Shown here piece after piece: positions 26 through 30,079 of a stretch of 64,000 nucleotides of DNA (position 1 is its first letter; each line of letters begins with the position of its first letter). The DNA is from Marsupella aquatica (lineage: Eukaryota; Plantae; Marchantiophyta): the NCBI GenBank assembly GCA_973895155.1, contig OZ316891.1, positions 31,751,112 through 31,815,111 on the forward strand, written 5' to 3'. The position numbers were made by a program, and so were the translations under genes. The notes under the pieces are model-generated. The model saw only the letters and a list, made by a program, of their open reading frames with translations. It ran no database searches and was not told the DNA's origin.

Positions 26-2954
26 GTGTTCAAATTTTGCAATTCCATTGTGTTGGCTCATCGAAGAGGAGCCTTTGGTGGGAGAGATGCATTGTGGGAT
101 TTGCTGAGAGATGTAGCTTCCAACCTCAATAGGGAAAAGCAGGGTCAGAGGTGGCGATCAGGGTCAAAGCTACTTGTCCAAACACTGTACCAACATGGGG
201 GAAGACATGTAGTTGACTGCCTACAGACTAATGGTCTAGGCCCTAGTCTGAACACCCTTCAACGAGATCGAAGGGGTATGGCAGTGTTTCGTGTTGGTAT
301 ACGAGCGGAGCAATTCAAGTTTGTGGCCGAAGTGTACTCTCGACTGAAACAGAGGATGGGTATCGATGGTCCTGTGCCATGCTATGTGGCTGAGGATGAG
401 ACTGTTGTGAAGCGCACAGTCAGGTGATTTCATCGTCATGATTATCATCTATCATTGAATTTGAGCTCGGTACTTGTTACCATGGCTAGATTGACTCGGC
501 AATTCACTGAAGTTTTCATGTGCCATGCAGATGGCAGCCTAAACATGATACACTTTTGGGATTTTGTGGAGAGAAAGAGAACCATAAATGTGTGGTGGGC
601 TTGACATGAAGGTTGGAGAGGGAGAGGAGGGCTTCAACAACATAACTGAAGCCTTTCAAACATATGTTGTTGGCCACCAAGCAAGAGCGCTTGTAGTGAA
701 TCCCCTGGTTCGTGGATTTCCTCGACTCTGTGTAGGAGGTACCATTACATGCAACAAGTTTAAGGCGGACGATGTAAGAGATCAATGGAATGACATTGGA
801 TCCCTATGGACCACTCATTGCTTGCAGTCAGTCGGCCCGCTCTTGGGCCATGCCAGTGGTGGGGATTCTCGTAGGAGGAAGCTCATGCTGGAAGACTACA
901 CTGGTAAAGGAATATAGGGGCCCAAACAGAACCTTTGCTAGGAAGGATGGCTATTGAGTCACTCGTTTACCACTGAGGGGCCCTATGTGCATGCTCATGG
1001 GTTACATGATCAAGATTACATCCACAATGGGAAGAAGCTCATCAACACATTGGATTCCTTGGCTAGAACATTGAAATTAGGGGCGCATGTGGCAAGTTGG
1101 AGTCATTTGGGGACTGTACAGAAGCTTGGTAGCCATGATGAACATGGCATTAACCTTGCAGACATTGGGCATAATGATAGACAGAATTGGGCTAGTGCAC
1201 AGAGACTCTGTAGTAGGAAAGTAGTCTCATCATTGAGGAAGCTTCGACAACGGAAGGATGTGAAAGTGGAGATGTCACTCGGGACTGAGATTTATGTAAC
1301 CATATGTGCAGACTATTTTGATGTGTTCATGAACACATCCCTTACTTTGCGGCAACGGATTGTCCTATGTGGAAAAGTTGGTTTCTTTTTCAGACTTTGG
1401 AGACTCTGGTGCTTCCATGGGAACCATACTGTAGGTGGTAATACACAGCCAATTAGTTTTACAGCAAGTTGCGTCCCTATGCAAACTTTCCTGGACATTC
1501 AAATATCAGTGCATTTTGTGGTCCTTCTGATAGTCCAATTTAGAGAGAATTTCCGACATCTGCCAGTACCCTTGCAGATGACAGGCTCTGACTGTTGTGA
1601 ACAGTTTTTCTCTAAAGTAGGTGGGATGAAAGGGAATGAGCGAAACTATGACTTTTCGGAACTTGTTGACTGTGCAACCTCTTTAAACAGGTTGGCAGCA
1701 ATGGACCTGAGTCGTGGGATTGTAGGTGCAGGGAGAAGTCATAAGAAGCACAGGTCCATTTGGATGTCTCTCATTCCAGGCCCTAAGGAGGATGCTGATC
1801 AAGCAGACTATTCAGGCATAGAAACAAATGAGGAAGTTGCGGCAGCTTTGAAAGAGGGGTTGTTGTTGGCGCAAAATGTTGCCACTCAACTTGAAATGAA
1901 CCCATTCACATCTTGCAAAGACAAAGTGTGGTGGGATTCACCATGGATCATGGAACAGAAAGGGTCAAAGTTTGGTGGATGGTGTGATGTTCGAGTGGAT
2001 GATCTCAATCCAGCGGATGATGTACTAGGTCCCTCGATCCAGCTCTCAACAGGACCTGTAGTTGGGCCACAGGTCCCGAGTACAGTACCGCCTTTTGTAG
2101 ATCCTACTGCTGAAATACCTGTTGAAACTCCTATGGAAACGGAGTTGTTAGTAGATGAGGGAGATGATGGGGTTCCAGATGTTCAGATAGCTTCTGCTGG
2201 ATGTGTGGTAGTTATGTCCGAGATTTATGCTGACCTGGTGTATGGTGAGCCTATTGTTGATGTGAAACCTACTGTGAGTTTCCAGGGTCGGCAAATATAC
2301 AAGAGCACATTGGTTAGTCAGCTTGTTGGGAATCCCCATCTTAGTAAGGACCGTTTGACTCATGTGAAGCAGAGCATTTATTTCAACAATTTAGTGGATA
2401 AGCCAGTGAATCGAGGTGTACCCACTATGTTCATGACTGTTGGTAGTGACTGTGGTGTATTATTTGAAGATAATACACCACAGGTGAGAGAAACTCGAAA
2501 TTCTGGAGGAAGTTCTCGATGCTTGAAAGGGAAAGGAGTTCGAAAGAAAGGGTGTAGCCAGGACTCTAGTGCCCTCCCCAACCCAAAGAGGCCACGAGGT
2601 GTGGCAGTCAATGTGGCCACAGTACCTGACAGTCCTAAATATGTGTGGTGGATAGGACGAGTACAATGCATTCAGAGGAGGTATAATGGGAAAGTTGGTA
2701 GAACAAGAGAAGCTGTGGATTTGCTTGATAGGCCTGGTGCTGATCAGGGAGTGAAAGTTTGATTTGATTGGTTTTCACGGGTGGGAAATAGCAGGCTAAA
2801 ATTTGCGTACAATGTCTCCGATCCTGACTGGATTGACTTGGACTGTGTCATATCAGCAGTCACTTTATCAGTGAATCTTGGTTGTCCAAACGTCTTCCAC
2901 CTGGATCAGGCAGATGCAGTTGTTCTGGATGATTTTGTCCAGACCCAAAAGTGA
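26..2954 (+). pseudogene. P-element-like DDE transposase, spliced, with stops and frameshifts
   Basis: Motifs in P-transposase order: AEDET (D1), HASGGDSRRRK (D2 region), QDYIHNGKKLIN (DxxH), GSDCCEQFFS (E). GT-AG intron 424-530 joins RTV|RWQPKHDTLLGFCG. Stops at 915 and 2760; the frame continues to TGA 2952-2954. Confidence 0.65.
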
Positions 2955-3317
2955 TTTGGGCGGGGATTTGGGTAAGCTCTAAAATTGTTTTCTGATGAAT
3001 GATATTCATTGAATGATTGCAGGGCAATCAAGTTGATGTACAAGCGAGTACGTACTGTAACTATCTATCGTCTTCAATTCATATGCATGTGGAGAGGTTA
3101 TAGATAGCATTTAATGTACATCTTTATGCCACAAGCAAAATGTAGTCTCCCCTAATTTGCATGTTCTGATGAGGGTTACTTGGCTTGCCTCAGGTGTCTT
3201 TGTTTGCTTGTGTTCTGTAACCTGGCCTGCAACAGACCGGGCAACAGACCCGACAACAATATGGTGTGTTCTAGACCCGGTTCTAGAGGGAGCACAGTGA
3301 AACATCGAATATATTGA

Positions 3318-3800
3318 TTGGATGTACCAATGCCCAAGCGGGGGCTGAAGCATGACCCCACTCCACGAAGAGAAATGTTGCCGAGGAGTGGGCCTAGTAG
3401 GAACGGGAGTAGGAAAGCTGGAGACGGGACTGGAGAGGGGGCTGGAGAGACTAGGAAGCACGCTAGGAAGTCTCCTATTGTGATGTTAGCTAATGAAACA
3501 ATCTGTCCCTCTAATTTCAAGAAGGACAGCAGTGAAGCCCAATGGATTTGCACTGAGTGTGGTGATGAAAGTCTTTGTAATATTTGCTCTCAGTTTGCAG
3601 AAGTGAATGCTCCCATCCCATATGAATGGAGCAACATTAAGAATCTGTGGCCTAGTAGGATGCCCAGTAGGATGTCTGGCACATTAGAGGCAGGAGTAGT
3701 GTTTGACTTCTCTGCCCTGTTAAGTGGAATACCGTGTGCAATGTCACCTCTGTTAATGTCTTGTAGTGAGATTTCGCTGGAATCGTTTGGAGAACTTTGA
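3318..3800 (+). CDS. Small hypothetical ORF inside the P-like element (CxxC...CxxC)
   Basis: 160-aa ORF containing CTECG...CNIC; no family recognised. Confidence 0.25.
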   Translation: MDVPMPKRGLKHDPTPRREMLPRSGPSRNGSRKAGDGTGEGAGETRKHARKSPIVMLANETICPSNFKKDSSEAQWICTECGDESLCNICSQFAEVNAPIPYEWSNIKNLWPSRMPSRMSGTLEAGVVFDFSALLSGIPCAMSPLLMSCSEISLESFGEL

Positions 3801-4163
3801 TATGTAATCTAGTATGAATTAGCTGTCTAGTGATTTGTGTGCTAAAGTCCCAATGACTTTCACACATTGCCAAAAATTATATGGCAATATGTTTGTTTAG
3901 TGTAAGTTGTAAGTGCCATTAACTGGCAGATAAAAAAAATGTGCACTCGTATTGGATGTCTTCACAAAACGATTTTTTTTATAACAAATGAAGGGTATTT
4001 TAAATCCCAAAATCTGTGTGATTATAATAACATAGGTAAATTTTATATAGGATTGAAAATTCTCTTTAGAACAAACAAGATATATTTTAATCTTCGTCCA
4101 AAATATAACTAGGGGTGCCTAGGGGACCTTCGGTCACAGGTATGTCTCATTACATTCCCTTTA

Positions 4164-5699
4164 GTGAGGGCCCAGGGTTTGCAGGATGTCCAAGGAATTT
4201 TGGGACAGGTAATGGGTTCCAACTTCACTTGGAGGAGGGTTCGCAATGGGCGCATTATTCAGTCTCGGCTTGATCGGTTTTACCTTAGCGAAAAAGGGCA
4301 GTGGATGGCGGAAATCATTGAACTCAAACATGATGGCTCTTCTGCTTTATTGGATCATTATCCGGTTACCATTACCTTTTGGATGACCCCTCTCTACGAT
4401 ACGGAGCTGATTACCCGCAGAGCCACATACTTTAAAGCGAACCCAGCGATTCTAAGAAAAACAGAGAATATTGAAACTCTAGCAGAGGCCTGGAAGGATG
4501 GGCAGGAAAGCAAGATGGATGCACATTTGAAGTTTGCCAATGCATTTCAGAGGCTGAGACGAAGCTACATGGAATTACAATACTCTCCGGTCCCGTGGGA
4601 TGAAGAAATGGTGAGAGTAAGGAATAAACTTCGCTTGCTGAAAATTGCGATCATGGATGATTACTCAGAAGATACTATACAAGATTTTTCTTGTATTGAT
4701 CAGTGTGTACATGAAATGGAGTTAGAAGAGGCCCATCATCATCGACGTATGTCTAGAATAACTTGGCTGGGGCAGGGAGAGGAACCTTCTAAGTTTTACT
4801 TTTCAATGGTAAAGGCTAAAAGAGTAAGAGAAAATATGGAATATCTGATCAATGAGGAGGGGAGGGAGATACGAGAGGAGAAATTGATATTGATGGAGGT
4901 ACAACGACATTGCCAGGCGTTATACACCCCACCGGTAATGAATAGCGAGGAGCTGAGGAAAATTCATGTTGCACGAGACAGATTATGTCAACATACTCAC
5001 TTCGCTCTGCCTGCTGCGGAGATCAGAAGGCTGGAGAGGCTACCCACTATGGAAGAATTACATGAGACACTAAGATTACTACCAGGAGATAAGGCACCAG
5101 GAATAGATGGCATGACCGCGGAGGTCCTACGTGCTTGCTGGGGATTCATGAAAGAAAATTTCTTGGAAATGGTGTGCGATTTTTGGAGGACCGGTAACAT
5201 CGCTTTTGGAATCAAGGAGGGTGTGATCCGGTTCATTCCCAAGAAGACTGACAAAAGAAGATTGGGAGATTGGAGAGGGTTAACTATGCTCACAACTACA
5301 TACAAGGTGATCGCAAAGTTACTTGCTCTGCGACTCAAGATACTGCTACCTAGATTGATTAGTCCACAGCAGACGGGATTCATCCCGGGGTGACACATTT
5401 TGGAAAATATTTCCCTTACCTGGCTAGCTAGCGATTGGATTAATCTTATGCAAACCCCCACTTTATTTCTACAACTCGATTTCAAAAAGGCCTTTGATAG
5501 GGTAGATCATTCCTATATCTGGGAAACTATGAACTTACTACCTGGAATAGGGTCTCACTTCATCTTTCTGGTTCGATCTCTACTTAGCAATGGATTATCC
5601 AAAGCGTTAGTGAATGGATTGTGGACGGAGGAAATTGGTATGAGCCGGGGTGGAGACAGGGATGCCCTCTCTCCCCGCTACTGTTTGCTATCTCCACAC
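4164..5699 (+). pseudogene. LINE ORF2 5' part (endonuclease C-terminus and RT N-terminal half)
   Basis: ORFs 4164-5393 and 5400-5798; premature TGA at 5391. Confidence 0.9.
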
Positions 5700-6368
5700 G
5701 GGTATAGCCACCGAGACAGGAAACAAGAAAACAGGAATTCTAGTAGCAGATTTTTTTGCTGTTATCAGGAATATGTTGTTGTTACCAGGAAAAGTTAGTC
5801 ATTGGAATAGGATAATACTTCATTACTTCAAGCCCAATACATCTGAAAAAAGCAATATGCATTGCGCTTCATTTAGATTCTAGAGCTTAGAACCAACTAA
5901 CACGACAACAATTGTTCTCTGAAGATAAGTGAGTCCGGAATCACCAACATACTTCTGGAAAATAGTGTCCCAAAAATCACAGACACACAACCATTAACCA
6001 GTGAATGCCACGGGAAAAAACATTGACATGGTAGGTCCCACCATAAGTAACATAATATTATAGGCCAACAATAAGGCAGAAAACCACAAATGAAAACTCC
6101 GGACAATTTGAAAGACCACCAATGATGGGCTAGCGCCTGGCGCTAGCTAAAATGGAAACAACAACACATTTAGAAAATGACATTGGATGAATGCAGAATG
6201 TGGCAAACAAAAATTTAAAATATCATTTGTAGTGATAGGATTACAATGAAGTAAATGGTAATAAGGAAGACTTCCATCCCAGCGCTAGGCGCTAACACAA
6301 AACTATACCGTTGTAATACGACAAAAACTAATATAACCATTTCGAGCAAAGGACAAATATATCCTTCT

Positions 6369-9300
6369 CTATAAACCATGAGCATTCTCCCTTTCCAAGA
6401 TCAGTCGGACTTCTCCAACTGTGAGAATTGGTTGGCTGGTCAAAGTAGATTCCTCAACATCTAGTTTGAAAATGGTCTGGAAAACCCAGTACAAATGTTT
6501 GCAAGGCATATATATGGATGTCTGCGAGAATGTTGACGATAGAAATCCTCACAAGAACAAGTCGGGAAAATACAAATCTGCACAAAGTAACTATTCGGCG
6601 TCCTTAGATTCTCATGTGTTTGTACTTTGAATTGCTTCCCCCATGAGTTCCCAATAGAAACATCCCACTGTCCCTGGACGGACATGGTCTCTTTTCTTGC
6701 AGATTCAATCCTCTTCATGTGACCATGGGTCAAGGTCGATCAAGGAACCGTGTTCTTTCCATTCCGACTCCGGAGACAAACAGTGGGTTCCAAAAGATTG
6801 ACTCTCTCTGGAAATAAGTTTACATTGATTCGAAGCTTGAAAAGTGATGGTGGAGGTAGACGACCGTCTCTTCCTTGGGCTATAGGTATTCCCTGTTCAA
6901 CAAGATACTTCATCTCAGCTTCCAAAACATTTGTTCCTTTTATAACAGGAAGAACATCGGGAAAGGAGGGCAGGTTCACTACACCACGGCGGGGATGGCT
7001 CCGATAACATGTGTTGTTTGGGCAGAACCATATCATTTTGGCTATGGGTTCCCCCTTGAACATGCGTTGTCCTTTGACAACAATGCCGATGACACCGTTT
7101 GATGAGGGGAACCCAACTTTCTTCACTCTATTTTGACACTCATCTCTCTCGGAACTACCGCCAAATGACGCGTTGCACTATGGACCGGCCCCAAATCTTG
7201 ATGTCCGACGCAGATGCCATGAACCCTGCATGACTTCTGTTTCAAGAATTGGAGATTGGAGCGATGTCTGCTGAAGTACAGTGGGAGCACTTTGTGGGTA
7301 TTGTGTTGAACGTGATTGATGTTGAACCTGCGGTGTACTGAAATCATCACGTTCTACATCCCTCAAATCATCACTTCCTGAGAGATTGACAACGGAAATG
7401 TCATTAGGTTTTTCTTCCGATACGGAAGCAAACATTGTGTGGTGCAGATTTTTACGCTTGAGTGATCTGGTATTTGACGATGTGATAAGGACTTTATCAT
7501 ACCGGTGGGAGTCTTGTGGCGAGACAATCCCAGTTGCAGGTCCTTTCCTCTTGACAGACTTTGTTAGAACATCTCCGTTGAGAGGAACGCTTCTCTCCAA
7601 GTCAAACTCAGCTGCATTGGAGAGGAGCAAGTTCATCGCATCCTCGAACAGCTTTGGGGAACCTGCCTGGTCAGCTGAATGGAAAGCCAATTCCCATATT
7701 GTAGGACCTCTTCCTCTACTCAATCCTTTCCGATATGCGATATATGCTGCAACCTGAGATATAGCTCGATTCTGATCCATTTCACATGCCTCGAAGAGCC
7801 CCACTTTTTTTTCATTACCCATGCTTTCATTCCTGCGTGAACAGACTCTGATCCGGTATAGTTAGGAATCCTAGCGCCTTCTTTAGCACTTTTGTCCTGG
7901 AACGGCAAAGCATAAACACTAGTAAGAATCCGCAAAACATACTAGCGCCAGGCGCTAGGCAGAACATTTCGACAAAACCATCAATATTATTGTGTAATCA
8001 CATGTTTATGGAAATAAATAGGTCAATATTTGAGAATCAATGACATTATTTGGATTCTTTGGATGGAATGTTGAGGAATGTCATCTGAAAAATGTACTTC
8101 TACAAAGGAATCTGACTTGCATATTACTAGCGCCAGACGCTATTACTCACCAAGCGAATAAAATTTCCCCACTGCCTCCAACACACGACCCACCACGATA
8201 TCCAACTCTGAAGCATTCGGAGCTTCCCAGGTAAGCAGTTACCCGACTGCCACCATAGGTCAATCTCTCTTGAAAGTCGGTAAGCCTCTACAAATGTCGG
8301 TGCGTTCCATAATTTATCCCATAGCATTCGATGTTCCGCCTGCTTCTCTTCCAACACTCCTTCAACAGAATGGCGATGAAAAGCTTGGTAAAAATGAAAA
8401 GCGTCCATCCTCTCCCGTTCAGGGTTTGGGTGCCCTCCAAAAAAAACATTTTGGACTGCTAACCATCTGGCTTGGGCATTGTCTGCCATGAAGCCATGAA
8501 TGGTTGGATTATCTAACCCATTCTCTTTGGAAACCTCAATCATTAATCTCCAAGCCTTCTCAAACGACGCCGTGTCCTCGGCTTTTAGCTCGCAAGTAAA
8601 TATTGTACACAATGCACGGTAATTATGATCATAAATGTGTGCGCTGAAAGTCACCCAATCCTTGGTCATTTGTTTCATGACATCGAAGCTTACCCAGGCA
8701 CCTTCAAGCATCCCTCCAGGTTGCATTTGCCGCATAAGATCCACCCCAGACCCATGGCCTTTGGAAGTCATCTTAAATATGTAAGGTCTGTCTTCTTGAG
8801 ATCCTTGACCTGGAAGGATGTACCTCTGTAGAAAAGGCATGTTGATATTCTTTTGATACCGAACAAGAAAATCCAACTCTCCACGGCCTTTCTGGTCCTG
8901 CCTAACACTCCTGAAAAGAGATGCAAACTTCTGTGGAGTATAAACTACCATTAGAGACTGGAAAATCTCTGTCTCTTCAATATCTTCAATCTCACCCAGG
9001 CTCTCACACAAAGACTGTACAAAAGATCCTGTCGCTACATTTTTAATCCCAGCAGGCATCCAAGTAGGATTGCCTTCCAATTTCTTTTTAATGACATCTT
9101 CAACTACCTTTTCCGCACTCCGGGAAAATACCTTACGACAAGGATGGTTGTGGGTGCCCACATGAATCGCAAGGCGAGACATGTGACTACAAGTATCTGA
9201 GTCAAGCAGAACTTGAGGATACATATAAAATAGTCTTGCAGAGCATGCCTCTACACAAAAAGGGAGCTGCTGGCAATGATGACAAACAACTCCACCCTGC

Positions 9301-10139
9301 TCAATGAACGATCCAACACGGTGAGAGCCTCCAAGTTTCGGGGAACCAGCCCATGCCTTTGCATTCCTCCTCTTCTTTCGGCGGAAGTAGTCACAAGTTT
9401 TATTCCTGCACTCAATAAATCCAGTACAAGTGACTTTACTGAATTCCCAGTATTTCTTGGGCTGCACGTTTGCAGTGGTAGGAAATATTCTTGTCCAGAT
9501 GTAGCAATCCTTGGTTCGGTCCATGTCCCGTAGACGGGATCCTTTTGAAAGAATTCCCGACGATGGAGGCAACTAAAACACTACGTTTCCATTGTACTTC
9601 GGAGGCAAACAAGGTACTTGTTCATGCCGGAAGTTTCCAGCCGAAATGAACCTCGAAAGTTTGCTGGACCCAATTGACTTGAGCAGCGCGTCCATTGCAC
9701 TTCTTCGATATACAATATGGGATTTTGACGATGGCATCTCCTCTTTGACCAAGACCACGTCAGGAGCCAAAGGCTCCACAAAGGGGATCCTTGGTGGCTC
9801 CTCATCATCACTATCAAAAAGAGCAACTACATCCACCGGATCCCTCTGAGGGGATTGCCGATCTCCTTGATTTGGTTCCCAAACGACAATGGAGTAGCGC
9901 AACCCAACATTAAGGTGCCAAAATCTCACCCCATCATTGACATCAAAAAGTGCGACAGATTCAAAGTCATTGGCTTCCGTTCCCTCCTCAACGATTGCCT
10001 CTATGTCATTCATGCGCAAATGAAACCTTCCACAAAGATAAACCTCACTTATTTGCCTGTACCTTTTGGCCACTGACACTGGAATGGAAATGATGTCACC
10101 GGTGGACATACGGGTAACTATGATTGACTGAGACATCAC
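6369..10139 (-). pseudogene. MULE transposase (GCM-like Zn domain, DDE, SWIM), one intron, several stops and frameshifts
   Basis: N-terminal CRNKTC, CHHC and GTHNHP (GCM/FAR1-like); WVSFD (D), FMADNA (D), DAFH (CxxH position), GSESVH (E); C-terminal CSCEDF...CKHLYW SWIM finger. Phase-0 GT-AG intron 8150-7897. Confidence 0.85.
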
Positions 10140-11112
10140 AGAAGCCTTGGAAGCAAATGAGCGCAGGAAAATTATGAATCAAAATTCTGCCGACGAGGGC
10201 TATTATCGATTGTGACTAACAGTTCCCTAAAGCCGTTATAATAAGACAATCCTCTGACACCATAAATGTATTTTGTCGTTATATCAACGTCATTTACAAT
10301 AAACATCATTTAGGAAGAACCCTTTTGTTCTAGAAATATCAGATGATGAATAGCGCCAGGCGCTATTAAAAACATTGCAAAAGAAGAGGTCCATGCAGAG
10401 TCATTTATGTGCAGCGCCTGGCGCTATTAATAACAATCCAAACGATTAGTGTCGATCTAACGTAAATTTATGTGTAGCGCCGAGCGCTAATAAAAGCAAA
10501 TGACGTAAACCAAAGTCCTAAAGGAGACACTAGATGATTAGCGCCAGGCGCTAATATTGATATCATTCATATTATGAACGTATACAATGGTAAAAACTAG
10601 AAGTAGGAGCCTTCAAAAGGAAGAAAAATCTTTGTTTTTTGCTAGCGCTAGTTTTATTTTGTATCAGAATTATGAGAAAACCGGATTTTGGGGAAAATAA
10701 TGGCATATTAACGACTCTTATGGCTCTATATTGAATTCCCAACTGACATAAAAATTGAAGATTTTAGGCCTTGGAAATTACTAGCGCCGGGCGCTACTAT
10801 TTGGTGAGTAAAAATGGATTCAAAATATTTTGAGGTTTTCCTTTCAACGGTCATATTCAACGGTAACTATAGGTTGCGTGACCCTAAATACATCGATCCC
10901 CTTTGGTGTTGTCGAATAAGATAACAACATGTGTCACAGATCCAAGCTAGTGGTTCAGTTTCCTTAGCGTATATGTTATGCTCTGTGCTCTAGATTCTTC
11001 TTATTTCCCATGTTAAGTACAGTATGATCGAAGCTGTTTGACGGGTTTTTGCCGTTCGTGGTATGGAAAGAGCGCGGTGGTCATCACTACTTCCTTCGCC
11101 CTTGTGCAAGCA
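10140..11112. promoter_or_regulatory. Putative bidirectional promoter between the transposase and ParB-MTase genes
   Basis: AT-rich spacer of about 1 kb between divergent start codons, with five full palindromes at 10351-10796. Confidence 0.5.
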
Positions 11113-14100
11113 ATGGACCCTGCCTTATCCTCCTCTCAATGCTTTAGTGGAAACGGGCACAGAGAGGTCGTTCCCTCGCAAACATCTCAGTGCTCATTTT
11201 CAGGATCTGTGTATAGTCGTCGAGTGACTCGATCCACTACTTCGCAAGCTCCTGAAGCACAACCCGCTGTATCGTTCCCGAATAGCAAGAGAGGGAAGAT
11301 GGATGATTCTAATTCGTTTGCTGTGGAGGACTTTGGAGAGACGTCGTTGACTATTTATGATGTGATCTCCAAACACATTATGTCATTTGGAAAAGATTTC
11401 CGAGGATATGACAAGGATCCGCCAAGGATTCCAATGTGCCGACTACTTCATATGGAAGTAGTGCGGACATTACAAAAGGGAAGCCCTTCGATAGAGAAGC
11501 TGAAAGACTCCTTTCAGAGCACAGGATACAATTCTAAGATCGGCATGTTGTTTTACGTCCAACCAACAGATTCCAATGGAGAAGTCCAGATCTGCACGCC
11601 AGAGATTCGTGCTTCTTGGGATGCAATTTGGGTTGCAGAGAACAAAAAGTTTGAGGCGGAATGTGCTGCCAAACCTGACTTCTCCGTCCTGCAAGATAAG
11701 ATGTTTTCTGTGTTTGATGGAAACCATCGACTCTACGCATGGTCCATCGTCACGAAGGAGAATCCGGATGATGTGAAATACCATCCTCGCATCCAGTGCA
11801 CAATATTCAAGGGAGAAAAGGGGTCCTTGATCGAGATTGAGGCAGCGATGCACACTGTTAACCAGTAAGTGTCTCTTCCAATATATTTCTAATCTAATCT
11901 ATGACCACAGTGTTTCACTAGCGCCGGGCACTACTGACTCCCTCTATCGTTTTCAGGCTTGGGCAGGCAGTGGTCAAACCCTCTTGGATACTTGATGCAG
12001 ACGGTATCAACCAAATTCTCTCGAATGAACTCGATTACTACAAGTCTATCATTGACGCTGCAAACTTCAAGAAGTTTGGGCAGATCATGCAGAAAACGCG
12101 GAGGGATCGTGGTATATGAAAAAAATGCCTCAAGAAGCGCTTATGTACATCTTGTGTGAGAATAAGATCAAGTCTTATTCTTGGCAGTTTAAGATGGATC
12201 TGGAACATGCTGCCGCTCAGGGTACACCTTGGTCTCCCGAAGAGATTTCAAAAGGACATGCAGCGATGATGAAGGAGGCAACAAAGGATTGGGCGATAAA
12301 GGTGTCAAAAATCACTCCTCTGTTAAGCCCCGCTTTTGAGGATTTCATGCGGACATGTGCTGAGATGTACCCCCTCACAGAGAAGAATAAGAGAGAGAAG
12401 AAGCCGGATGCAGTTGTCTGTACAATGGATCGAGCAAGATTGTTTACCGCTGTCTCTGCCCTCGACCCCAAGCTGAGGAGTACCCTTCTGGTTGCCCATT
12501 GTACACCGGAGCTGAGGAAACAATTCTTCCATCCACAGAGCATTAATGACGATCTAGTGAAGCAATGGTGCCATACCTGGCAAACTTGGAACATTGTGGA
12601 GGGAATCGCTATTGGTTTGCTGCAAACCTCCCTACGCCAGGTTAGTGATATAGTCCCCGCCAATCGGTTGCAAGAGTGGGAGTGTGAGTCGATTGAATCG
12701 CTTATTGAAATAGTCTCAAATGACTTCAAGAAATTTGGGGACGCTGTGAAAGGCAAGTTTTTTAATACAATGTGGCCTTCCAAGTATCCTGACAAGGCTG
12801 ACTACAACCTCAAGAATCAGAAGAGGGCCAAACAATACCTGTATCGTTTTTTCAATCATGCACATGGAGATTGTGAAGCTAGATTACTTTTGGGCATACC
12901 CTGCTGCTTTCCAAAAGTGGATCGTTGTTCCCGAAGGAGACATACTGGCCGACGTGTATTCAATGTATCCCGCTGAAGGGTGTCTTCCACCAAGGGAACT
13001 GTCAGAATGGGAGAGAATTCATTGTCCTTGGTATTTGGACACCGATAGATGGGACTCTCCATTCAGAGACACTGAGAAAGACGCATTTCATAAGCTTTCA
13101 AAGTCTCAGGTCCCTCCCAAGTTTGTGTCCAACATGAAGCAGGGAATCGAAGGTGATGTGAGCAAGTCGGCGGCAGAATTGCAAGCGGTGTGTGAAACCA
13201 CAGTTGTTCATGTTGATCGAAGTTGCACACCCAGAGCCAAAGCAAAAACCGAAGCTGCGGCACCGAGTACCTCAACACGGTCCGCCAAAAAATGTAAGTT
13301 GTCATTCAGCTTGTAGCTTCACATTTTGGTTAGCGCCAGGCGCTGCTATATGACTATGTCTATTGGTTTGTTTTCTCAATTGGTTTGGACAGTGCCTGGC
13401 ACTATTATTCAGCATTGAATAAATTCTGCTCTTTTTCCTTTAGGTGGGAGAAAGTTTGACGCTGCAACCGATGACACAAAAGTAGATGCCACTCCGGAGC
13501 CTTCCGAAGCCAATACCGGTGCCCAGTCAGACCCAATAACTCCAATTGACAAAGCGAAAGAGATCGTCCCTTTTGATGCAACCAGTACAAATAAGAGGAA
13601 GAAAAGGGCAATTCAAGCAGAAGAATCTTCCCGAGATGATGCCGCTGGAACTGGTGTTCAAAGAGATGTGGGAACCTTCAAGAGCAAATCTTTTAGGCAT
13701 TGCATGGTGGAAACAAGTATCCAAGAATTTATTAATACTGCTTTCAACAAAGCAGTGAAACCAGATTGGGTGACTAATGCAGAGAAATGGGGAAAGGACT
13801 TAATCAAGTCGGGTTCCCGAGAAAAGGGAGTAATCAGAGGAGGAAAAGAAAGATCGTTTGGTGTCAATGCAGGATTCATCTATCTTCCTACTGGACTTAA
13901 ACCTACGCTCATGGACCGTCGGGTTCCAAAGTGGAATGTACCAGACCACACAGTTCCCGGTTCTTTCTTCAAAGTGATGGACCCTTTCCTTTTTGATGAT
14001 GGCATGCTTGCGATCTTGTATTCTGATGACCATGACCAGGTCTCGTAGGTCATTTCAACATGCCAGCAGTCCAAAAAGTTCCATTGTGTCAATTCTCACA

Positions 14101-14823
14101 ATGTCGTCATGTCTATGCCCATGTACAGAGCAAAGACCGATATTCAGGTACAAATCATTGCATATCTTGTTTATTGTTAGCGCCTGGCGCTAATTTAGTC
14201 TTTGCTGTAGTTCTCGAATCATTAGCTGTCGGTTGATAATTTGAGCCAAATGTGTGCGATGCGTGCAGGTATTTACCCTTAGGCTAGACATATTTTGTCA
14301 GACTTCTTCAAAAGGAAAGGTACCAAAGGATCCAAGGTTTAAGCCTCTATCAATAACTGAAGATCCTTTGATCTCTAACTTGATTGGGCTTCCAACCTTG
14401 AAGACAGATCATTGCCCAGAGTTGGATTTTGCTGGGAACGCCTGTCTTTCGGTTGGTTTTATGCAATCGGTGATAGAGCTTTTTACTCTTCCTGGAGATA
14501 TTGTCCTTGACTGGACTGTAGGTTCAGGAAGCACATTCATTGCTGGTGATTTTTCTGGTCATTTCATGATTGGGTTGGAAAATAGGCGTGAGTTTGTTGA
14601 GGCTGCATCAAGGGTTTTCTTAGAACTTCTTGATCCCAAGCATGTTCCGATATTGACTCCTCCCGCGACCAATTTAAGTGGTCGCAAAAAGAAAGATAGG
14701 CTCCGATCTGTTCTCAATTTTGATTCTGACGAAGAGGAAGGTACCTTTGGAGACGTCGAAGATGACACAAAGAAAACCCAGGAGGAAGATTCTTCGAAGA
14801 AGAGCGAAGACTCAGACGAGTAG
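11113..14823 (+). pseudogene. Spliced gene: ParB/Sulfiredoxin-like N-terminus fused to an N4C/N6A DNA methyltransferase-like (N6_N4_Mtase) C-terminus; this copy is lightly disrupted
   Basis: FSVFDGNHRLYAW matches the ParB/Srx signature. IELFTLPGDIVLDWTVGSGSTFIAG...MIGLE...FVEAASR matches motifs X-I-II of beta-class amino-MTases. GT-AG introns 11865-11956, 13294-13443 and 14148-14268 link the ORFs. Frameshifts near 12110 and 12855; TAG at 14046. Confidence 0.75.
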
Positions 14824-15990
14824 TGTTCTTCCAGTAAGCTTCTTGATCCTTTCAAGTGTTGTTGATAATTTTGGGTTCTTGCTCTCTTATTTCCTAAACT
14901 TATATTTTTTTCTGTTTTACTGGATCAGGTCAGAATGGAATCTGAGGAAGCGTTTCCAACTCCGGAGGAGACTAGCTAGGAATGTAATTGTCACTCCTGA
15001 GAAGCCGTTTGTTTTGCCCTCATACGCTGAAAATGCCGCTAGGAGGGTTGACAAAATTAGAACGCTTTGTTGGGAAACAAAAGGTCTACGTCTTCAGAGG
15101 GGAGCAGACAGGAAGTTCATGAGGAACCCTTATATAGATGATGTTTCCCGAAGCAAGTACATTGATGATGAAGCCGAGTCCACGGACAGATCTGAAAGCT
15201 CCGCATCAGAAACATCTGGTAGTTTATAGGTAGCAATGGGGTTTTCTTCAAATATGTCCTTTAATGTTTCAATATGTAACCATTTCGATGAATTGGCTGA
15301 TTTTAAGCCCTTTCAACTCTTACTAGCGCCAGACGCTCCTCAAACATACTGTCTTTATTATATTTTTATTTCAGATTCTTGAAGTTTGAGTTGTGAAGAC
15401 GTGTGCTCAGGTGCAATATTGGCTAGCGCCGGGCGCTTCCCAATTTTCTAAGGGTTCTTGGGTGTGGATTCTTTCATGGCTGTGGTTGCATAAATGTTTT
15501 GTTTTCCGTCTGGTTTTGTGGTATTAGGTGAACTGGCGGGAACAGTCATGGATCTTTGCAGCTACATGTCTTCTAGAAAGACCCTGATCGGGAGGAGGCT
15601 GGAATAGATGATGGTTGTCAACTGGGATTACTATAGTAGCTCCAGGCGCTACTGAAAGGTTTTGGTTAATTATAATTGACTTAAATAGCTTTCCGAGATT
15701 GAACATTTCATAACCCCCTTCATTAAATATCCTTCGAGAGTGCAATTGGTACAAATTATAGACTCTTCACAGCGCCCGGCGCTAGCAATAATCGTGGAGA
15801 GTTCCTATCGCTACAAGTTTCTTATATTTATTCCTGTTTGTTTTTTTGGTGTCTTTTAAGAAAACCTCGCCTTCGACGCTATTTTTACCTGAATTGAGAC
15901 TAGAATTTTCCTGTTACCAGTATTTTTACCTATTACCAGTTTCTGTTATGAATACCTATTTCCTGTTTTCCTGCCTTTTGTAAACACCTC

Positions 15991-17881
15991 CTCCACGCAG
16001 CCATTTATGGATTTCTGTAATGCAGAGCTCGCTGCTGGTAGATTGCAGGGTCTTAGGATTAATTCTTCTTTACACATATGCTTTAGATTGTTTGTGGATA
16101 ATGTAGGATTGTTCATCCCAACCACTGCTGAAGCTTTTGACCAGGCAAAAGAGGCGATTAGCTGTTATGAAACGGCCTCAAGAGCCAGACTGAATCTGAA
16201 AAAATCTGTGATCATCCCATTTGCTTTAGAGGTGATTCCGGAGTGGCTTAGAAACACCGGATGCAAAATTAGCGAAAAAGGTATGGTGTAGTGCTACCTT
16301 GGAGCACCCTTCGGAGTGGACCTGTTGGAAGCACAGCTGCATAATTTTTGTCTAGATAAAATTGGGGCGAGGCTATCATCATGGTCCACCAAATTTGTAT
16401 CGTTCACAGGACATTTAGTGCTGATCAAACACGTCTTATAGGCTATTCCAATATATCACATGATGTTTATACGATCATCAGGAGAGTTAGCTAAGAAGAT
16501 GACGATTCTGAATAGAACTTTTCTATGGGGAAGTAACCATCTCGGAGGACGCCGAATACCATTGGTGGCGTGGGAGAAGATGACACGACCTAAACTGGAG
16601 GGGGGACTTGGATTGAAGGAATTTAGAAGTCATTCTGATGCCTTGTTGTGCAAATGGTTTACTGGGGCACTGGATGACCCAAATTCTGAATGGGCCAAAA
16701 TGTATGCGGCGAATCTTAGGCTGACAAAGTGGCAAAATTACAAGACTATGAGGAGGAATCACTATTCCATGACGGATCTGCTATTACTGAGTACCCCAAG
16801 ATCTTTTGGTAAATTGGCATATACGGGAAAGCTTTGGGGTGCATGGGCTAAGGTACGAGAATACTTGATTTTTTGCCCTGGCACAGGCTCTATTCCAGGG
16901 AATTGGGGCATTGAGGACACAATACGTTGCTTGCACGGTTTTTATCATCTGCTCGAGAAGGATATCACATAGATTGTCCAAATCTTTGGTCGATTGGGAA
17001 TTTGGACCACACTGGACCTCTGGTCTACTGTGGACAATAGATGGAAAGACATGTTAGGAAAATTACAAAGATTGAGAGGATTTACCATCACTGGCCAAGC
17101 ACAAAGCGCATTACTTCTTCGAAATCTTACTGAAGCCAGGATTGGAAGTTGCGCACCACTGGTGGATGCCTGCCTTTGGAGATGGACAGATTTAGCTGCA
17201 AGGATGAGGAATTTTGGATTATCCAATACGAGGGTATATGAGATGCTACAACCCAAGGGCACGGACTTGGATCGTTTAAACCAAATATGGAGAGAAGCAC
17301 TTACAGAGATGGAGTGGAGAGGCATTTGGAAAGTGTTGTGGAGATCAGACCTTTCTATGAGAGTGAAAGTTTTCATTTGGTGCGTTCTAGCAAAAGGATT
17401 ATTCTCGAGATCAAGGGCATTGAAGATTGGGAAATCTAATGGTCACTGTCTGCTCTGTGACAACATGTTAGAAACCATCCCCCATCTATTCTGTCACTGT
17501 TGTCATGCACAATGTTGTTGGATTGAAGCTAAAACTTGGATGAACGGAGATCTCATTGGTACCTATCTGAGCATCATTGGGCTGCTGAGATCCTTTCAAG
17601 GTCGCACACTGTTACACTCACTCAGGGCATTTATAATTTACCAGATTTTATGGAGCATCTGGCTTGCTAGGAACTATGAAACCTTTGATTTGGCACAGCG
17701 ACAAGTGTTTGATCAATTACAGGTCATTTCAGACACAATGGATCATCTGGCTGCCATTATTGCAGCTACCATCCCCACCTCTGACAGGAAAAGGAGTCGA
17801 CTACACGCTGCATCTGAAATGCTGAGAGAGGAACGCACAAGGCTTGTTAGGTCTGAAGTTAGAAGGCTAATAACTCGATAG
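15991..17881 (+). pseudogene. LINE ORF2 3' part (RT C-terminal half and zf-RVT)
   Basis: LFVDN (degenerate FADD), YLGAPFG, PKLEGGLG, CLLCDNMLETIPHLFCHC; several stops. Confidence 0.9.
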
Positions 17882-25087: not shown

Positions 25088-26244
25088 AATGATAGTGTGA
25101 TATTCATTCTATTTTGGTGCAATGAGAACCGTCATCTCCTCGTCAGTCCAATCTGGCAACCATCATCAGAAAGCATGCCATCATCAAAAAGGAAAGGGTC
25201 CACAGCTCAGAAAAAAGCATTGGGAACTGTGTGGTCTGGTACATTCCACTTTGGAACCCGACGGTCCATGAGCGTAGGTTTTAGTCCAGTAGGAAGATAA
25301 ATGAATCCCGCATTGACTCCAAATGATCTTTCCTTTCCTCCTCTGATGACTCCTTTTTCTCGGGAACCCGACTTGATTAAGTCCTTTCCCCATTTCTTAG
25401 CATCTGTCACCCACTCTGGTTTCTCTTCTTTGTTGAAAGCACTCTCAATAAATTCTTGTATGATTTGTTTCCACCATGCAATGCCTTGTGTTATGAGTTA
25501 AACCTAACCCGTTAACCCTAGGTAATAGAGGTTAAGGAGTAGTTACATAACTACCTCCATATAACCCCACATATGTACCAAACATTAACATTATTATTGA
25601 TGTTGGAGATTGGAGTACATTCTGGCTATGGTGTCCTCATTCTAACACGTTATCAGCACGTCTCATTGAGCAATGTACATAGGCCAATAGTAGAAGAACT
25701 TACGAACATGCAATTTGATTACCCTCCATCTATAGGAAAGAAATTGAATACATCCTCAGGACGATAGTACAGCCATGAAAGGACAATTTTACATAGTTGT
25801 TTCCCCTTAAGACCCAGGAAGGATTGAAATCATAGGAACAGTCTTCCTCCCACACATGACCTGTTATGCAATCCCACATTCAAAGACCAAGATGTACATG
25901 GCCCGGAAATAGCACAGATTACACTCAGGATTCCGAAGACCATTGATAACAACAACTCCAAAGTGCGCCCTCATGAAATTGCCCAAGATTATGGACATTT
26001 GATTGCGTACAGACAACATCGAGTATAAATTCACAACAGGAAGCGGCCTACAAAGGGAAGTCATACAAACATTTGTGAATCCCTAATCATTGATCAAGGA
26101 TCTAATATTTACTCATGTCATAGTACCACTACGAAATTAAGCTCACACACCAAATTGTGAGAGGGGGATCATTGACATTTCAAAACCGTTGAGAAGGCCT
26201 ACAATATCTGCATCAGAAGAAGACCATAAATAAACTACACTTAT

Positions 26245-28293
26245 ATGGCAAAACTGACGCTAGAAAAAAAAAGCTTCCAAGAATTGGCCATAGATGGATC
26301 AAATTATCTATCTTGGTCCCTAGATATGGAGGCACATTTAGCAGCTAAGGACATACCAGATACTATAATCACAGATAATGGGCCCACATTACGTGAAAAA
26401 GCTAAGGCCCTGGTTTTCATAAGGCACCACCTAGCAAAGGCCTTGAAAACCCAATACTTAAATGAGTACAATCCGAGAATACTATGGGACAAATTAAAAC
26501 TCCGATTTGATCATATGCGATTGATCTCAGTGCCAGCAGCGAGACATGATTGGATCAACCTAAGGGTCCAAGACCACAAGACCATAGCAGAGTACAATAG
26601 CAAATTATTTTGCATAGTATCCGGGATAGTATCACAACTCGCGGTCTGCGGCAACCCAGTTGACGATGCTGAGCAGATCGAGAAGACCCTGTCGACGTTC
26701 CACCCAACAAATTTGGTATTAGCGGCTCAATACAGAAATATGGCATTCACAAGATACTCCCAGTTAATAGCACATATGTTATTAGCAGAGAAGCACCAAA
26801 TCTTACTTATGGAGAATTCAAAAACAAGGCCCTCGGGTACTCTCCCACCCTTAACAAAACCAGAATCACAATATAACAGCAATAATCAAAGGGGTTTCAG
26901 GGGGAGGAGTACCTACAGGGGGCGGGGTGGACAACCTGCAGGAAGAGGAAGAAACCAATTTCCCAGAGGAAGAGGTGCAGGACGCATCAATAACTCTGTA
27001 AATGACAGACCAAGGTGGCAGAGCCGAAACACGGATCGCGGCAGAGGGCATGGAAGAATCAGCAACTACGGCATACCAGATAAGAGATACAACCCAATCA
27101 AATGCTTTAGATGTGGTACACAAGGACACACAAGAAAAGATTGCAGGGCTCTGGCATCACACCTAGTTAATCTTTACCAGGATTCAATAAACAAACCTAC
27201 AAAAGAACCCCAAGGCAATTTCCTAGAATTACATCAAGAGCTCACGCAATATGTTACCGAACCCCCATCACCGGAAATACATACAATTACCTATGGAGCG
27301 GAGGATTCCAAACTAGCAGACCCAACACTCTGTATAATCGACAGCGGCACCTCACACACAATTTTAAAAGAGAGAAAATACTTCACCAACATTACCCCAT
27401 CATCAAGAACCATCACAACAATTTCTGGCCAAAAACAGATAGAACACGGGCATGGTCCAGCTACTGTCACACTCCCAAGAGGGACTGTGATCCACATTGA
27501 ATCTACAATTTATGCACCAACAGCCACCAGAAATCTGATTAGCTTTTTGGACATCCGAGCAAATGAACTACATATCTCCACCAGCACCCACAACAATCAA
27601 GAAGTCTTGCAAATCCTTAAGAAAACACCCAAGGGACTACAAGTCCAAGAAATACTCCAGGCACAACCCCCAGGATTATATGTGACTCCAATACAATCAC
27701 ACTATCCTGAGCATAAAAAGCAGCATATTGCCATTACTTGGCATCACCGGTTGGGACACCCTGGCACAAACATGTACCATAAAATTCTTAAAGACTCAGT
27801 GGGCATCCCACAAGCAGCAAAAACATCCTTTAAACATGATCCTTGCATAGCATGTTTGCAGGGTAAATTTATTACTCGCCCATCGATTACCAAGACAGTG
27901 TATACTATCCCTAAGTTCCTGGAACACCTCAACGCTGACGTTTGCGGCCCTATCGAGCCATCCAATGGCCCATTCAGATTCTTTTTGGTTATGATTGACT
28001 CATCAACCAAGTGGTCACAGGTGTCCCTCATATCCACAAGAAACTTAGTATTCTCACGAATATTAGTCAATATACTTAAGTTGAGAGCACAGTTCCCGGA
28101 ACATCCCATAAGAATATTGAGAGTTGATGGAGCTGGGGAATTCACTTCAAAGACATTCAATGAATTCTGCCTTACCGCTGGAATAGAAGCCCAGTATCCC
28201 GTCCCATATGTACATTTCCAAAACGGGATGGCAGAGTCAGTGATCAAAAGAATACAACTCAGTGCACGTCCACTATTGATGCAAAGCCACTAG
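26245..28293 (+). CDS. Copia Gag-protease-partial integrase
   Basis: CFRCGTQGHTRKDC knuckle, IDSGT protease, WHHRLGHP...CIAC, ADVCGP, RVDGAGEF, QNGMAE. Confidence 0.9.
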   Translation: MAKLTLEKKSFQELAIDGSNYLSWSLDMEAHLAAKDIPDTIITDNGPTLREKAKALVFIRHHLAKALKTQYLNEYNPRILWDKLKLRFDHMRLISVPAARHDWINLRVQDHKTIAEYNSKLFCIVSGIVSQLAVCGNPVDDAEQIEKTLSTFHPTNLVLAAQYRNMAFTRYSQLIAHMLLAEKHQILLMENSKTRPSGTLPPLTKPESQYNSNNQRGFRGRSTYRGRGGQPAGRGRNQFPRGRGAGRINNSVNDRPRWQSRNTDRGRGHGRISNYGIPDKRYNPIKCFRCGTQGHTRKDCRALASHLVNLYQDSINKPTKEPQGNFLELHQELTQYVTEPPSPEIHTITYGAEDSKLADPTLCIIDSGTSHTILKERKYFTNITPSSRTITTISGQKQIEHGHGPATVTLPRGTVIHIESTIYAPTATRNLISFLDIRANELHISTSTHNNQEVLQILKKTPKGLQVQEILQAQPPGLYVTPIQSHYPEHKKQHIAITWHHRLGHPGTNMYHKILKDSVGIPQAAKTSFKHDPCIACLQGKFITRPSITKTVYTIPKFLEHLNADVCGPIEPSNGPFRFFLVMIDSSTKWSQVSLISTRNLVFSRILVNILKLRAQFPEHPIRILRVDGAGEFTSKTFNEFCLTAGIEAQYPVPYVHFQNGMAESVIKRIQLSARPLLMQSH

Positions 28294-28300
28294 TGAACAG

Positions 28301-29032
28301 GTGCTGGGGCCTGAAAAGCCCTATCTCTCAGCGATTGGAGCCCTCCTTTACCTAGCAAATCAGACAAGACCCGACATCAGCTTCGCTGTCAGCCTACTGG
28401 CCAGACACGGATCACAACCAACGATCAGACATTGGAATGGAATAAAGAGGGTCCTTCGCTACTTACAAGGGACAGTGGACATGGGATTATACTTCCCCAA
28501 GAATTCGACCCCAATTTTGACAGGATTCGCAGATGCAGGGTATTTGTCGGACCTAGATGATGCGAAGTCCCAAACGGGCTACGTTTTCCTGCAGGGCACA
28601 ACAGCGATTTTGTGGAAAAGCACGAAGCAGTCTTTGACAGCCACATCCTCCAACCATGCAGAAATTATAGCACTGTACGAAGCAACAAGAGAATGTGTGT
28701 GGCTTAGACACTTAATTGACCATATTAATCACAGCACTGGCAAACCACTGCTAACAGAACCTACCATCCTTTATGAAGACAATCGACCTTGCGTGGACCA
28801 GATCGCCAAAGGATTTATCAAAGGTGACAGAATCAAACACATTGCCCCGAAATTATTTTACGCACATGAACAACACGGAGAGAAGATTCAAGTTAAGTGG
28901 ATACCAACAAAAGATAACAGAGCTGACCTCTTTACGAAGCCCCTGCCTCCCGTCCTCCACAAGGCACATACATTTGGCATCGGCATGAGACAACTCACAG
29001 ACTTGTTACGCCCAGAAACAGAAAAGAATTAA
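28301..29032 (+). CDS. Copia RT C-terminus and RNase H
   Basis: YLSAIGALLYL, TRPDISFAV, GFADA, YEDN, ADLFTKPL. Confidence 0.9.
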   Translation: MLGPEKPYLSAIGALLYLANQTRPDISFAVSLLARHGSQPTIRHWNGIKRVLRYLQGTVDMGLYFPKNSTPILTGFADAGYLSDLDDAKSQTGYVFLQGTTAILWKSTKQSLTATSSNHAEIIALYEATRECVWLRHLIDHINHSTGKPLLTEPTILYEDNRPCVDQIAKGFIKGDRIKHIAPKLFYAHEQHGEKIQVKWIPTKDNRADLFTKPLPPVLHKAHTFGIGMRQLTDLLRPETEKN

Positions 29033-30079
29033 GATGACAGCCGAGATTACTTACCTGTACTTGAAAGAATGCAACTCGACGAATGATCGCTACAACGACC
29101 TCTTTCAATAGCGCTCCTTGATGACTAGCGCGGGGACCAGTGTCTACGACTCGCGCACCTCCTAGCAGCCAACAACACTCCAAGAAACTACATTCCACCT
29201 CCAAGGCGCTTTGTTCCCCTTCGACAAACCCGTCACCAGACCTAACAACGTCATCGACTAAACGTCGACTCTACCACTACCCAGCCGAAGACTTACTCCC
29301 CGCAGACTTTGCCCTTACACGCTCATTCTCCTTTTCGATAGTTACTCGAACAATTTCTCATATATTATGTTAAGACACTTACCTTAACTTAGATTAAACT
29401 TATAAACAGTCTTAGATCAATTAGACTTTCATTACTTTTAATCATTTCCTCAAGGGTCCCACATTATGTAATGGTTGTGGCACTCTTTCCCTTATAGTTA
29501 GAAGAAGGGTTTTGATGAGACCAAACCAAATTGATGGGCACCACTACGGGTTAAGCTTTCCCCTACTATGGTTGATTTTTGACTATCCCCAAATTCAACC
29601 AAGGGGGAGTGTTATGAGTTAAACCTAACCCGTTAACCCTAGGTAATACAGGTTAAGGAGTAGTTACATAACTACCTCCATATAACCCCACATATGTACC
29701 AAACATTAACATTATTATTGATGTTGGAGATTGGAGTACATTCTGGCTATGGTGTCCTCATTCTAACACCTTGAAGATTTACTCTTGAAGTTTCTCACAT
29801 CTCTCTCAAGACCGCAGGGGCATTATCCCGGGAAGATTATCCTGCTTGAATTGCCCTTTTCTTCTTCTTCTTTGTACTGGTTGCATCTAGAGTAACGATC
29901 TCTTTTGCTTTCTCAACGGGAGTGACAAGGTCTGATTGGGCGCTGGTATTAGCTTCAGAAGGTTCAGGAGTAGCATCAACCTTTGTGTCGTCAGTTGCAA
30001 TGTCTGACTTTCTCCCACCTAAAGGAAAAAACATAATACAATCAATGTTCTCCAAGAAAGTTTGCCGCAAGTGCTCTTG

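Follow-up and report, generated by a model that had tools for sequence, protein, structure and literature searches.

A 15-bp palindrome in the non-coding DNA of a Mutator-like transposon from the liverwort Marsupella aquatica as a candidate recognition site for the element's own ParB-domain protein

A window of 64,000 nt from Marsupella aquatica (contig OZ316891.1, positions 31,751,112-31,815,111 of the forward strand; 'the window' denotes this whole stretch throughout) contains a decayed transposon with two genes, one for a transposase and one for an accessory protein with ParB-like and methylase-like domains, and a 15-bp palindrome recurs in the non-coding DNA of this element. The question raised by the locus is which protein reads the palindrome and what is gained by it. 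The answer that we favour, at a probability of roughly 0.55, is that the palindromes are parS-like self-recognition sites to which the ParB-domain protein of the accessory gene binds as a dimer.

The window was scanned for the palindrome with up to 2 mismatches; 16 matches were found, all within 6131-15784, as against none in 100 shuffled versions of it. Outside the element, in the remaining 54 kb, no copy was found at this threshold and none was expected, in agreement with an earlier note on this DNA. A 17th copy, at 13390, is decayed (3 mismatches, both CpGs lost) and is the second intron 2 copy in the tally of that note (2, 2, 5, 1 + 2 + 1 and 4 copies from left to right), which was reproduced in full; contig joints from 13374 to 10412 and from 10429 to 13432 suggest that this site is intact in other copies of the element. 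Six of the 17 copies are exact, and the longer perfect symmetry reported before was recovered over 19 bp at 6129-6147 and 10537-10555 and also at 10349-10367. Introns and gene models were predicted from homology and splice consensus. No palindrome overlaps a predicted exon (0/17, p ~7e-10, given that a word of this length would lie wholly in non-coding DNA at 29% of its possible starts in the element and would touch coding DNA at 71%), the best match in coding DNA has 4 mismatches, and a single half-site lies there, at 7872. Of the earlier claim that the palindrome occurs in every intron and never in exons, the second half stood; the first did not hold for a probable fourth accessory intron (14834-~14930), where the palindrome is absent and the best match has 7 mismatches. 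The termini are also free of it in this copy, with none within 430 bp of the left end or 206 bp of the right end. Coordinates are collected in Table 1.

Table 1. Features of the element and of its second copy in the window (window coordinates).
Feature	Position	Strand	Remarks
Decayed two-gene Mutator-like DNA transposon	5700-15990		weak terminal inverted repeats; in LINE (long interspersed nuclear element) reverse-transcriptase gene
Left target-site duplication	5692-5699	+	8 bp; read directly
Left terminus	5700-5800	+	degenerate inverted repeat; CAGGAA x4 at 5717, 5732, 5766, 5786
Palindromes 3' of transposase	6131-6145; 6280-6294		exact; 2 mismatches
Transposase exon 2	6328-7896	-	SWIM-like Cys/His motif (by eye); stops and frameshifts
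Transposase intron	7897-8150	-	GT..AG; same position in relatives; L001 has an intron there
Palindromes in transposase intron	7943-7957; 8128-8142		exact; 1 mismatch
Transposase exon 1	8151-10136	-	GCM-like Cys/His region (by eye); D..D..DxxH core; one in-frame stop
Palindromes in divergent spacer (n = 5)	10351, 10412, 10475, 10539, 10782 (range 10351-10796)		
Accessory exon 1	11113-11864	+	low-complexity N-terminus; ParB/Srx-type nucleotide-binding domain (DGNHR)
Palindrome in accessory intron 1 (11865-11956)	11919-11933		
Accessory exon 2	11957-13293	+	all-helical region with no clear fold match; two frameshifts; tblastn with P0166, E 3e-21
Palindromes in accessory intron 2 (13294-13443)	13331-13345; 13390-13404		59 bp apart
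Accessory exon 3	13444-14147	+	linker; N-half of beta-class amino-methyltransferase fold
Palindrome in accessory intron 3 (14148-14268)	14178-14192		exact
Accessory exon 4	14269-14833	+	methyltransferase C-half; SAM (S-adenosylmethionine)-binding motif I; PF01555 E 6.8e-08, above curated cut-off
Probable fourth accessory intron	14834-14930	+	3' end uncertain by a few bases; no palindrome
Probable accessory exon 5	14930-15229	+	acidic tail; tblastn to P0030 tail, E 0.047 (weak)
Palindromes 3' of accessory gene (n = 4)	15324, 15424, 15637, 15770 (range 15324-15784)		
Right terminus	15830-15990	-	CAGGAA x4 on minus strand at 15973, 15965, 15913, 15836
Right target-site duplication	15991-15998	+	8 bp
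Second-copy fragment of accessory exon 3	29774-30030 + 25171-25486	-	split by a copia long terminal repeat element

On comparison, all 34 half-sites have A at position 2 and G at position 3, the centre base is free and the flanks add a loose TTRN, so that the extended half-site consensus reads ~TTRN-TAGCGCC. The central CCNGG is broken in 4 of the 17 copies; the conserved part of the palindrome is the outer half-site and not CCNGG. Seven of the eight internal half-site changes are C-to-T, an excess that is the mark of 5-methylcytosine (5mC) decay. Site 14178 was read in the contigs of other copies, where the 40 best-supported of the 65 variable places include the centre base, one arm base (14187 G>A, possibly a tolerated change and possibly itself 5mC decay) and 10 places in the surrounding intron flanks.

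The first four promoter palindromes are spaced 61, 63 and 64 bp apart. One pair among them is a tandem duplication, because spacers 10366-10411 and 10427-10474 are homologous at a score reached by 0 of 1000 shuffles; the remaining 9 of 10 promoter spacer pairs had scores that at least 144 of 1000 reached. Around the other palindromes the flanks are for the most part unrelated (on average, 16.6 of 50 positions identical), and the earlier statement that the copies are not tandem amplification applies to these and fails for the duplicated pair. Neighbour spacings of 59-64 bp were counted in 4 of 10 cases (p 0.0095, or p 0.14 with the duplication counted once), and three joints in other contigs, two of them homologous to each other, give a spacing of 63 bp, which is about six helical turns. 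The joint table lists short gaps only, and phased binding is therefore suggested, not proven; helical phasing was not evident among the longer palindrome spacings or among those of a sister locus, L001 (84 and 90 bp). Some contigs join two palindromes 63 bp apart by DNA unrelated to the element, and the palindrome is therefore probably present in sister families or in non-autonomous derivatives as well. Selection had been proposed before and is supported here, and within the window the palindrome is specific to the element; the odd-length dyad with its free centre is also, as was proposed, a fit to a dimeric DNA-binding protein. The palindrome is a real, selected cis-element of the transposon family.

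A scan of metagenomes gave five loci (L001-L005). The L001 transposase is 60% identical to that of the element, and its homologous intron holds three copies of the same half-site arranged without a central base (spacer 0), with symmetric arms longer than in the element. The spacer thus changes between the families, from 1 in the element to 0 in L001. Because L001 keeps the half-site while the two introns align no better than shuffles (score 108; shuffles mean 102, maximum 127), the palindrome outlasts its surroundings. A perfect hairpin of 60 bp with 29-bp arms (L001:1172-1231) has one spacer-0 palindrome of the L001 transposase intron at its centre and may show how new sites arise.

The accessory gene was predicted to have five exons and is colinear with proteins of 1200 residues from the liverwort Riccia sorocarpa; fern proteins are colinear as well, at a greater distance. 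Exon 2 carries indels relative to other copies at 12101 and 12852. The fourth intron is probable from tail homology and splice consensus, and tails like that of P0030 occur in three more relatives (P0173, P0176 and P0177). An exhaustive search gave 231 homologs of exon 1, and a word-indexed search for longer ones gave none among 242 candidates; over 11299-11865, many of the 150 homologs listed end at the same residue, so that the position of intron 1 looks conserved across the family. The relative P0166, 35% identical to exon 1, was modelled with a mean pLDDT (predicted local distance difference test) of 79.7. Its N-terminal domain superposes on ParB 7bm8 with Z 9.2 and a root-mean-square deviation (rmsd) of 2.2 over 98 residues, which bears out by fold the ParB call made earlier from sequence; KorB 8qa8 ranked first for P0166 among 48,161 chains (Z 7.9), the top 14 VIA rows were all ParB/Srx-fold proteins, and the top nine Foldseek rows were ParB or Noc at weak E values (0.14-0.6). 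Of 53 aligned homologs, 49-51 retain R56, G141, N142, H143, R144 and N188, and the GxxR motif is present as [DE]GNHR (G 49/53, R 49/53). By motif, R56, GNHR and N188 are assigned to the residues that line the ParB nucleotide pocket. The canonical ParB-family motif is GERRxR, unlike [DE]GNHR here (PMC11790492). Atlas look-alikes of exon 1 (0.92-0.95) were named ParB/Sulfiredoxin, with DUF3723 in 31% and ParB_N in 11% of members, and are taken as a lead only; fungal DUF3723 clusters were among them. ParB sequence matches at E 0.07-0.09 fell on the linker and were treated as chance. Viral contigs gave no relatives and no paired palindromes, and a viral fold search gave ParB-like rows, none with E <0.001.

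For a palindrome read by the accessory protein the following course of events is proposed. The helical region after the ParB domain, which is the candidate DNA-recognition part, would read the half-site, and a nucleotide-gated dimer would load at the site and spread along the element, by analogy with ParB and KorB. Since such a dimer would spread from sites every 0.1-2.2 kb, the whole element could be covered, including exons that cannot hold sites. No enzymatic role is envisaged for the methylase-like domain, which may instead serve in dimerisation, in SAM binding or in the reading of modified bases. The output would be family-specific activation or anti-silencing of the kind described for VANC, by which the family would stay transcribed and unsilenced; the densest palindrome cluster is in the shared promoter region. 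Protein and site would co-evolve between families, the spacer being 1 here and 0 in L001. The different repeated word at the termini (CAGGAA) was counted in favour of recognition by the accessory protein.

Several observations weigh against it. The ParB domain gave no sequence match in Pfam or the Protein Data Bank (PDB) and was not named by PHROGs either, and no helix-turn-helix could be placed after it, superpositions past the domain having an rmsd of 8-10 A; ParB-fold domains also occur in proteins without a DNA-binding domain, as in a phage ParB activator (PMC13229309). In one contig the right terminal region carries an inserted extra palindrome, at 15889, and this weakens the separation of palindromes from termini. 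L001 holds a transposase only, so it offers no accessory protein to compare for co-evolution, and the other four of the five loci (L002-L005; 25-45% identity, 1-1.7 kb, short and distant) showed no such motif. The CpG observed/expected ratio of the element (0.63-0.64) is above that of the flanking LINE (0.45) and in line with the values elsewhere in the window (0.44-0.69), and there is therefore no sign of protection from methylation. Finally, the VANC motifs to which the sites are likened are non-palindromic 9-mers in tandem repeats, whereas here a 15-bp dyad stands in mostly unrelated flanks (PMC5735166, PMC10398659).

The transposase is the main rival as binder of the palindromes, which it would contact through its N-terminal GCM-like zinc region either to activate its own gene or to organise a transpososome with degenerate ends; we regard this as unlikely on balance. 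GCM/WRKY-type domains bind short non-palindromic words, which was counted against it. The half-site is common to L001, which is linked to the element through the transposase only, the ends of the element are degenerate and the additional palindrome at 15889 in another copy is close to the right end, all of which suit the transposase; the spread of palindromes over the introns of both genes rather than at the ends does not, nor does the word CAGGAA, which the ends have as a repeat of their own and which is a candidate transposase site. Published work on Mutator transposases points both ways, since such a protein can itself be a sequence-specific activator and the AtMu1 transposase peaks at terminal repeats (10.64898/2026.08.24.746577).

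That the palindromes are sites of a host transcription or chromatin factor, exploited by the element as enhancers, is improbable. A 15-bp dyad would suit many dimeric host factors, and the families have the half-site in common; that their spacers differ (1 in the element, 0 in L001) is easier to conceive with a co-evolving binder encoded by the element, and no site was found near the host gene for a pentatricopeptide repeat (PPR) DYW protein or elsewhere in the 54 kb.

Slightly less probable again is an active amino-methyltransferase, by which the accessory protein would methylate CCNGG at the N4 position of cytosine (N4C) and so block silencing by host 5mC. The beta-class order of motifs is present (IV before I), the SAM motif I is intact (PF01555), and a low-confidence model of P0167 (pLDDT 45.6) matched M1.HpyAVI (E 1e-06) and CcrM (E 3e-06); besides PF01555, no further Pfam family was found above cut-off in the accessory protein, and proteins of this kind have been proposed to modify their own element (PMC12477816). 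The catalytic motif IV, (D/N/S)PP(Y/F/W), however, reads YLPTG at 13881-13895, without D/N/S and without the aromatic residue. The same YLPTG is found in the second family copy (25171-25486), and T>G at 13881 did not reach 5% in any of four runs, all counted T>G places being accounted for elsewhere. A copy-specific deletion was rejected, the alignment being ungapped and the motif shared. Of 18 Riccia rows, the 15 that align at motif IV read D[LM][PS][ST] and none has the aromatic; two fern relatives read DVPFG and DFPIG, DxPF being kept in one of the two. The rotifer enzyme N4CMT requires the Ser and Tyr of SPPY (PMC8885841). With the ParB pocket conserved and the methylase active site not, methylation of CCNGG is argued against: the methylase domain is probably inactive as judged from its residues, and self-methylation of CCNGG by the accessory protein is unlikely. 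The hint in the earlier note that CCNGG is an N4C target is not sustained, given the missing catalytic residues, the broken core in 4 of 17 copies and an L001 palindrome without CCNGG spacing; the C-to-T bias of the half-sites, as a mark of 5mC decay, also speaks against such a block.

Weakest is the view of the copies as by-products (of a tiny miniature inverted-repeat transposable element (micro-MITE), of template-switch palindromes or of RNA hairpins in introns and untranslated regions), which we consider very improbable: the L001 hairpin, the duplicated promoter pair and the contigs that join palindromes by unrelated DNA speak for such processes, which may create copies and leave their retention unexplained. 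Against them, it is one particular word that is retained, not dyads in general; the copies stand at varying distances from splice sites, and five lie between divergent genes; and a check for consistent target duplications flanking the 17 sites, the finding by which a micro-MITE would have been recognised, gave only scattered 4-bp matches at 8 of 17 with varying offsets. All remaining readings together are given a similarly small share.

The element is 10.3 kb long. It interrupts a LINE whose frame QGCPLSPLLFAIST ends at 5699 and continues with STQPFM from 15992, RVT_1 and zf-RVT domains being found by Pfam on the flanks. The two copies of the target-site duplication are identical at 7 of 8 positions, the difference being CG to CA, and the duplication can be read as 8 bp with 1 mismatch or as 9 bp with 2 in this one insertion; the duplication of Mutator and Mutator-like elements (MULEs) is about 9 bp. 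The two ends were aligned with each other at a local score of 127, reached by 7 of 500 shuffles. The genes are arranged head to head, the transposase on the minus strand and the accessory gene on the plus strand. The Mutator/MULE group is defined by a DDE core with a (C/D)xxH signature, and the transposase was read as Mutator-like from its D..D..DxxH motifs against this definition; the D, D, D and H are kept in 12, 12, 11 and 11 of 14 alignment rows, the third acidic residue was not located, and Pfam, PHROGs and PDB sequence searches left it unnamed, with no Pfam MULE match. Its exon 1 has 13 homologs (identity 43-66%), homologs end at the same place, the intron boundary, and its exon 2 has indels relative to other copies at 6508 and 7803. 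From its stops and frameshifts this copy is judged to be dead. Related contigs, 272-6237 per run, together covered the whole length of the element in four of four sequencing runs from three organisms, and the element is therefore a repeated family. The second-copy fragment (~600 bp) is 82% and 91% identical to exon 3 in its two pieces, is essentially coding only and holds no palindrome; it begins at the intron 2 acceptor, with unrelated DNA upstream, and the copia element that splits it has a 5-bp duplication. At least two copia-type elements occupy 26230-35263. Also in the window are an open frame of 1269 codons (43753-47559) for the PPR protein mentioned above, which has E, E+ and DYW deaminase domains and is of the host organelle RNA-editing type, as suits a land plant, and an open frame of 606 codons (942-2759) without a Pfam match, possibly another transposase.

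Three known systems were compared with the element. The first is that of VANC21 and VANC6 with their motifs in the VANDAL elements of Arabidopsis. A short motif brings VANC21 to the introns, the intergenic DNA and the non-coding terminal parts of its element (PMC5735166), and it demethylates its own Mutator-like family (PMC5735166, PMC10398659). As described there, VANDAL elements, like this one, are Mutator-like, their ends are degenerate, they carry an accessory gene, and each family has a short motif of its own concentrated in non-coding DNA, where all 17 of the present sites lie; an organisation in tandem repeats, as in VANDAL, is not seen here, only 1 of 10 promoter spacer pairs being homologous. 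Judged by fold and Pfam, the accessory protein differs from VANC in being of ParB and methylase fold, and anti-silencing by it is what we infer. On this reading the element would combine VANC-type logic with a ParB-type protein.

Accessory genes of the ParB-methylase type in algal transposons are already known from the account in PMC12477816: a Sola element of Ectocarpus carries a gene for a ParB-like and methylase protein of 1104 residues opposite its transposase, self-binding has been proposed for it, and similar proteins are cited for green and red algae. By description the likeness extends to both domains, to size (1104 residues against ~1200 in relatives of the present protein) and to the position opposite the transposase; the carrier here is a Mutator-like element of a land plant instead of a Sola element, the catalytic motif is lost, and the passage in PMC12477816 names no target sites. 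Among bacterial systems, the ParB-family protein KorB of RK2 binds palindromes and regulates at a distance on its own mobile element (PMC11790492), and the BisD/bisS pair of ICEclc likewise consists of a ParB-fold protein and palindromic sites with action at a distance (10.1101/2024.09.16.613209). Dispersed palindromic sites (12 for KorB, from a cited title) and an odd-length dyad as operator are shared with KorB/OB. KorB and BisD are bacterial, proven cytidine triphosphate (CTP) clamps with a defined DNA-binding domain, whereas here the likeness is one of fold and motif (8-14% identity) and the setting is eukaryotic chromatin. N4CMT of rotifers (PMC8885841) and MpDN4MT1 of Marchantia (10.1101/2021.02.12.428880) share the beta-class fold, the bacterial origin and the eukaryotic setting; they are host genes with an intact SPPY and, in the portions of those reports used here, no mention of a ParB domain, in contrast to the transposon cargo with YLPTG. 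The enzymes described in Iyer 2016 (PMC4738411) and in the Marchantia N4-methylcytosine preprint are, as far as those texts were consulted, others. In the literature searched, to which supplements, Petroll 2025 and Iyer 2011 (which may describe them) did not belong, no target palindromes for ParB-methylase transposons and no land-plant Mutator-like carrier of such a gene were described.

For the ParB-methylase proteins, the locus gives a precise candidate target site for the self-binding that has been proposed, and the spacer variant in L001 and the degenerate methylase shift attention to the ParB domain and make the proposed function directly testable. If the palindromes are indeed sites of the accessory protein, family-specific anti-silencing would have been reached by a second route, a CTP-type clamp may be at work in a plant nucleus, and the site could be put to use as a short, programmable landing pad. 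In a bolder form, which we hold only tentatively and think doubtful as a whole, land-plant Mutator-like transposons would have co-opted a bacterial ParB/parS-type system, in which a nucleotide-gated dimeric clamp loads at palindromes phased at ~63 bp in every large non-coding gap and slides to keep the element active; a pseudo-methylase would close the ring or read marks, and each family would have a spacer variant of its own. Were this true, a ParB sliding clamp would be at work on eukaryotic chromatin, and anti-silencing of the VANC type would have been invented independently.

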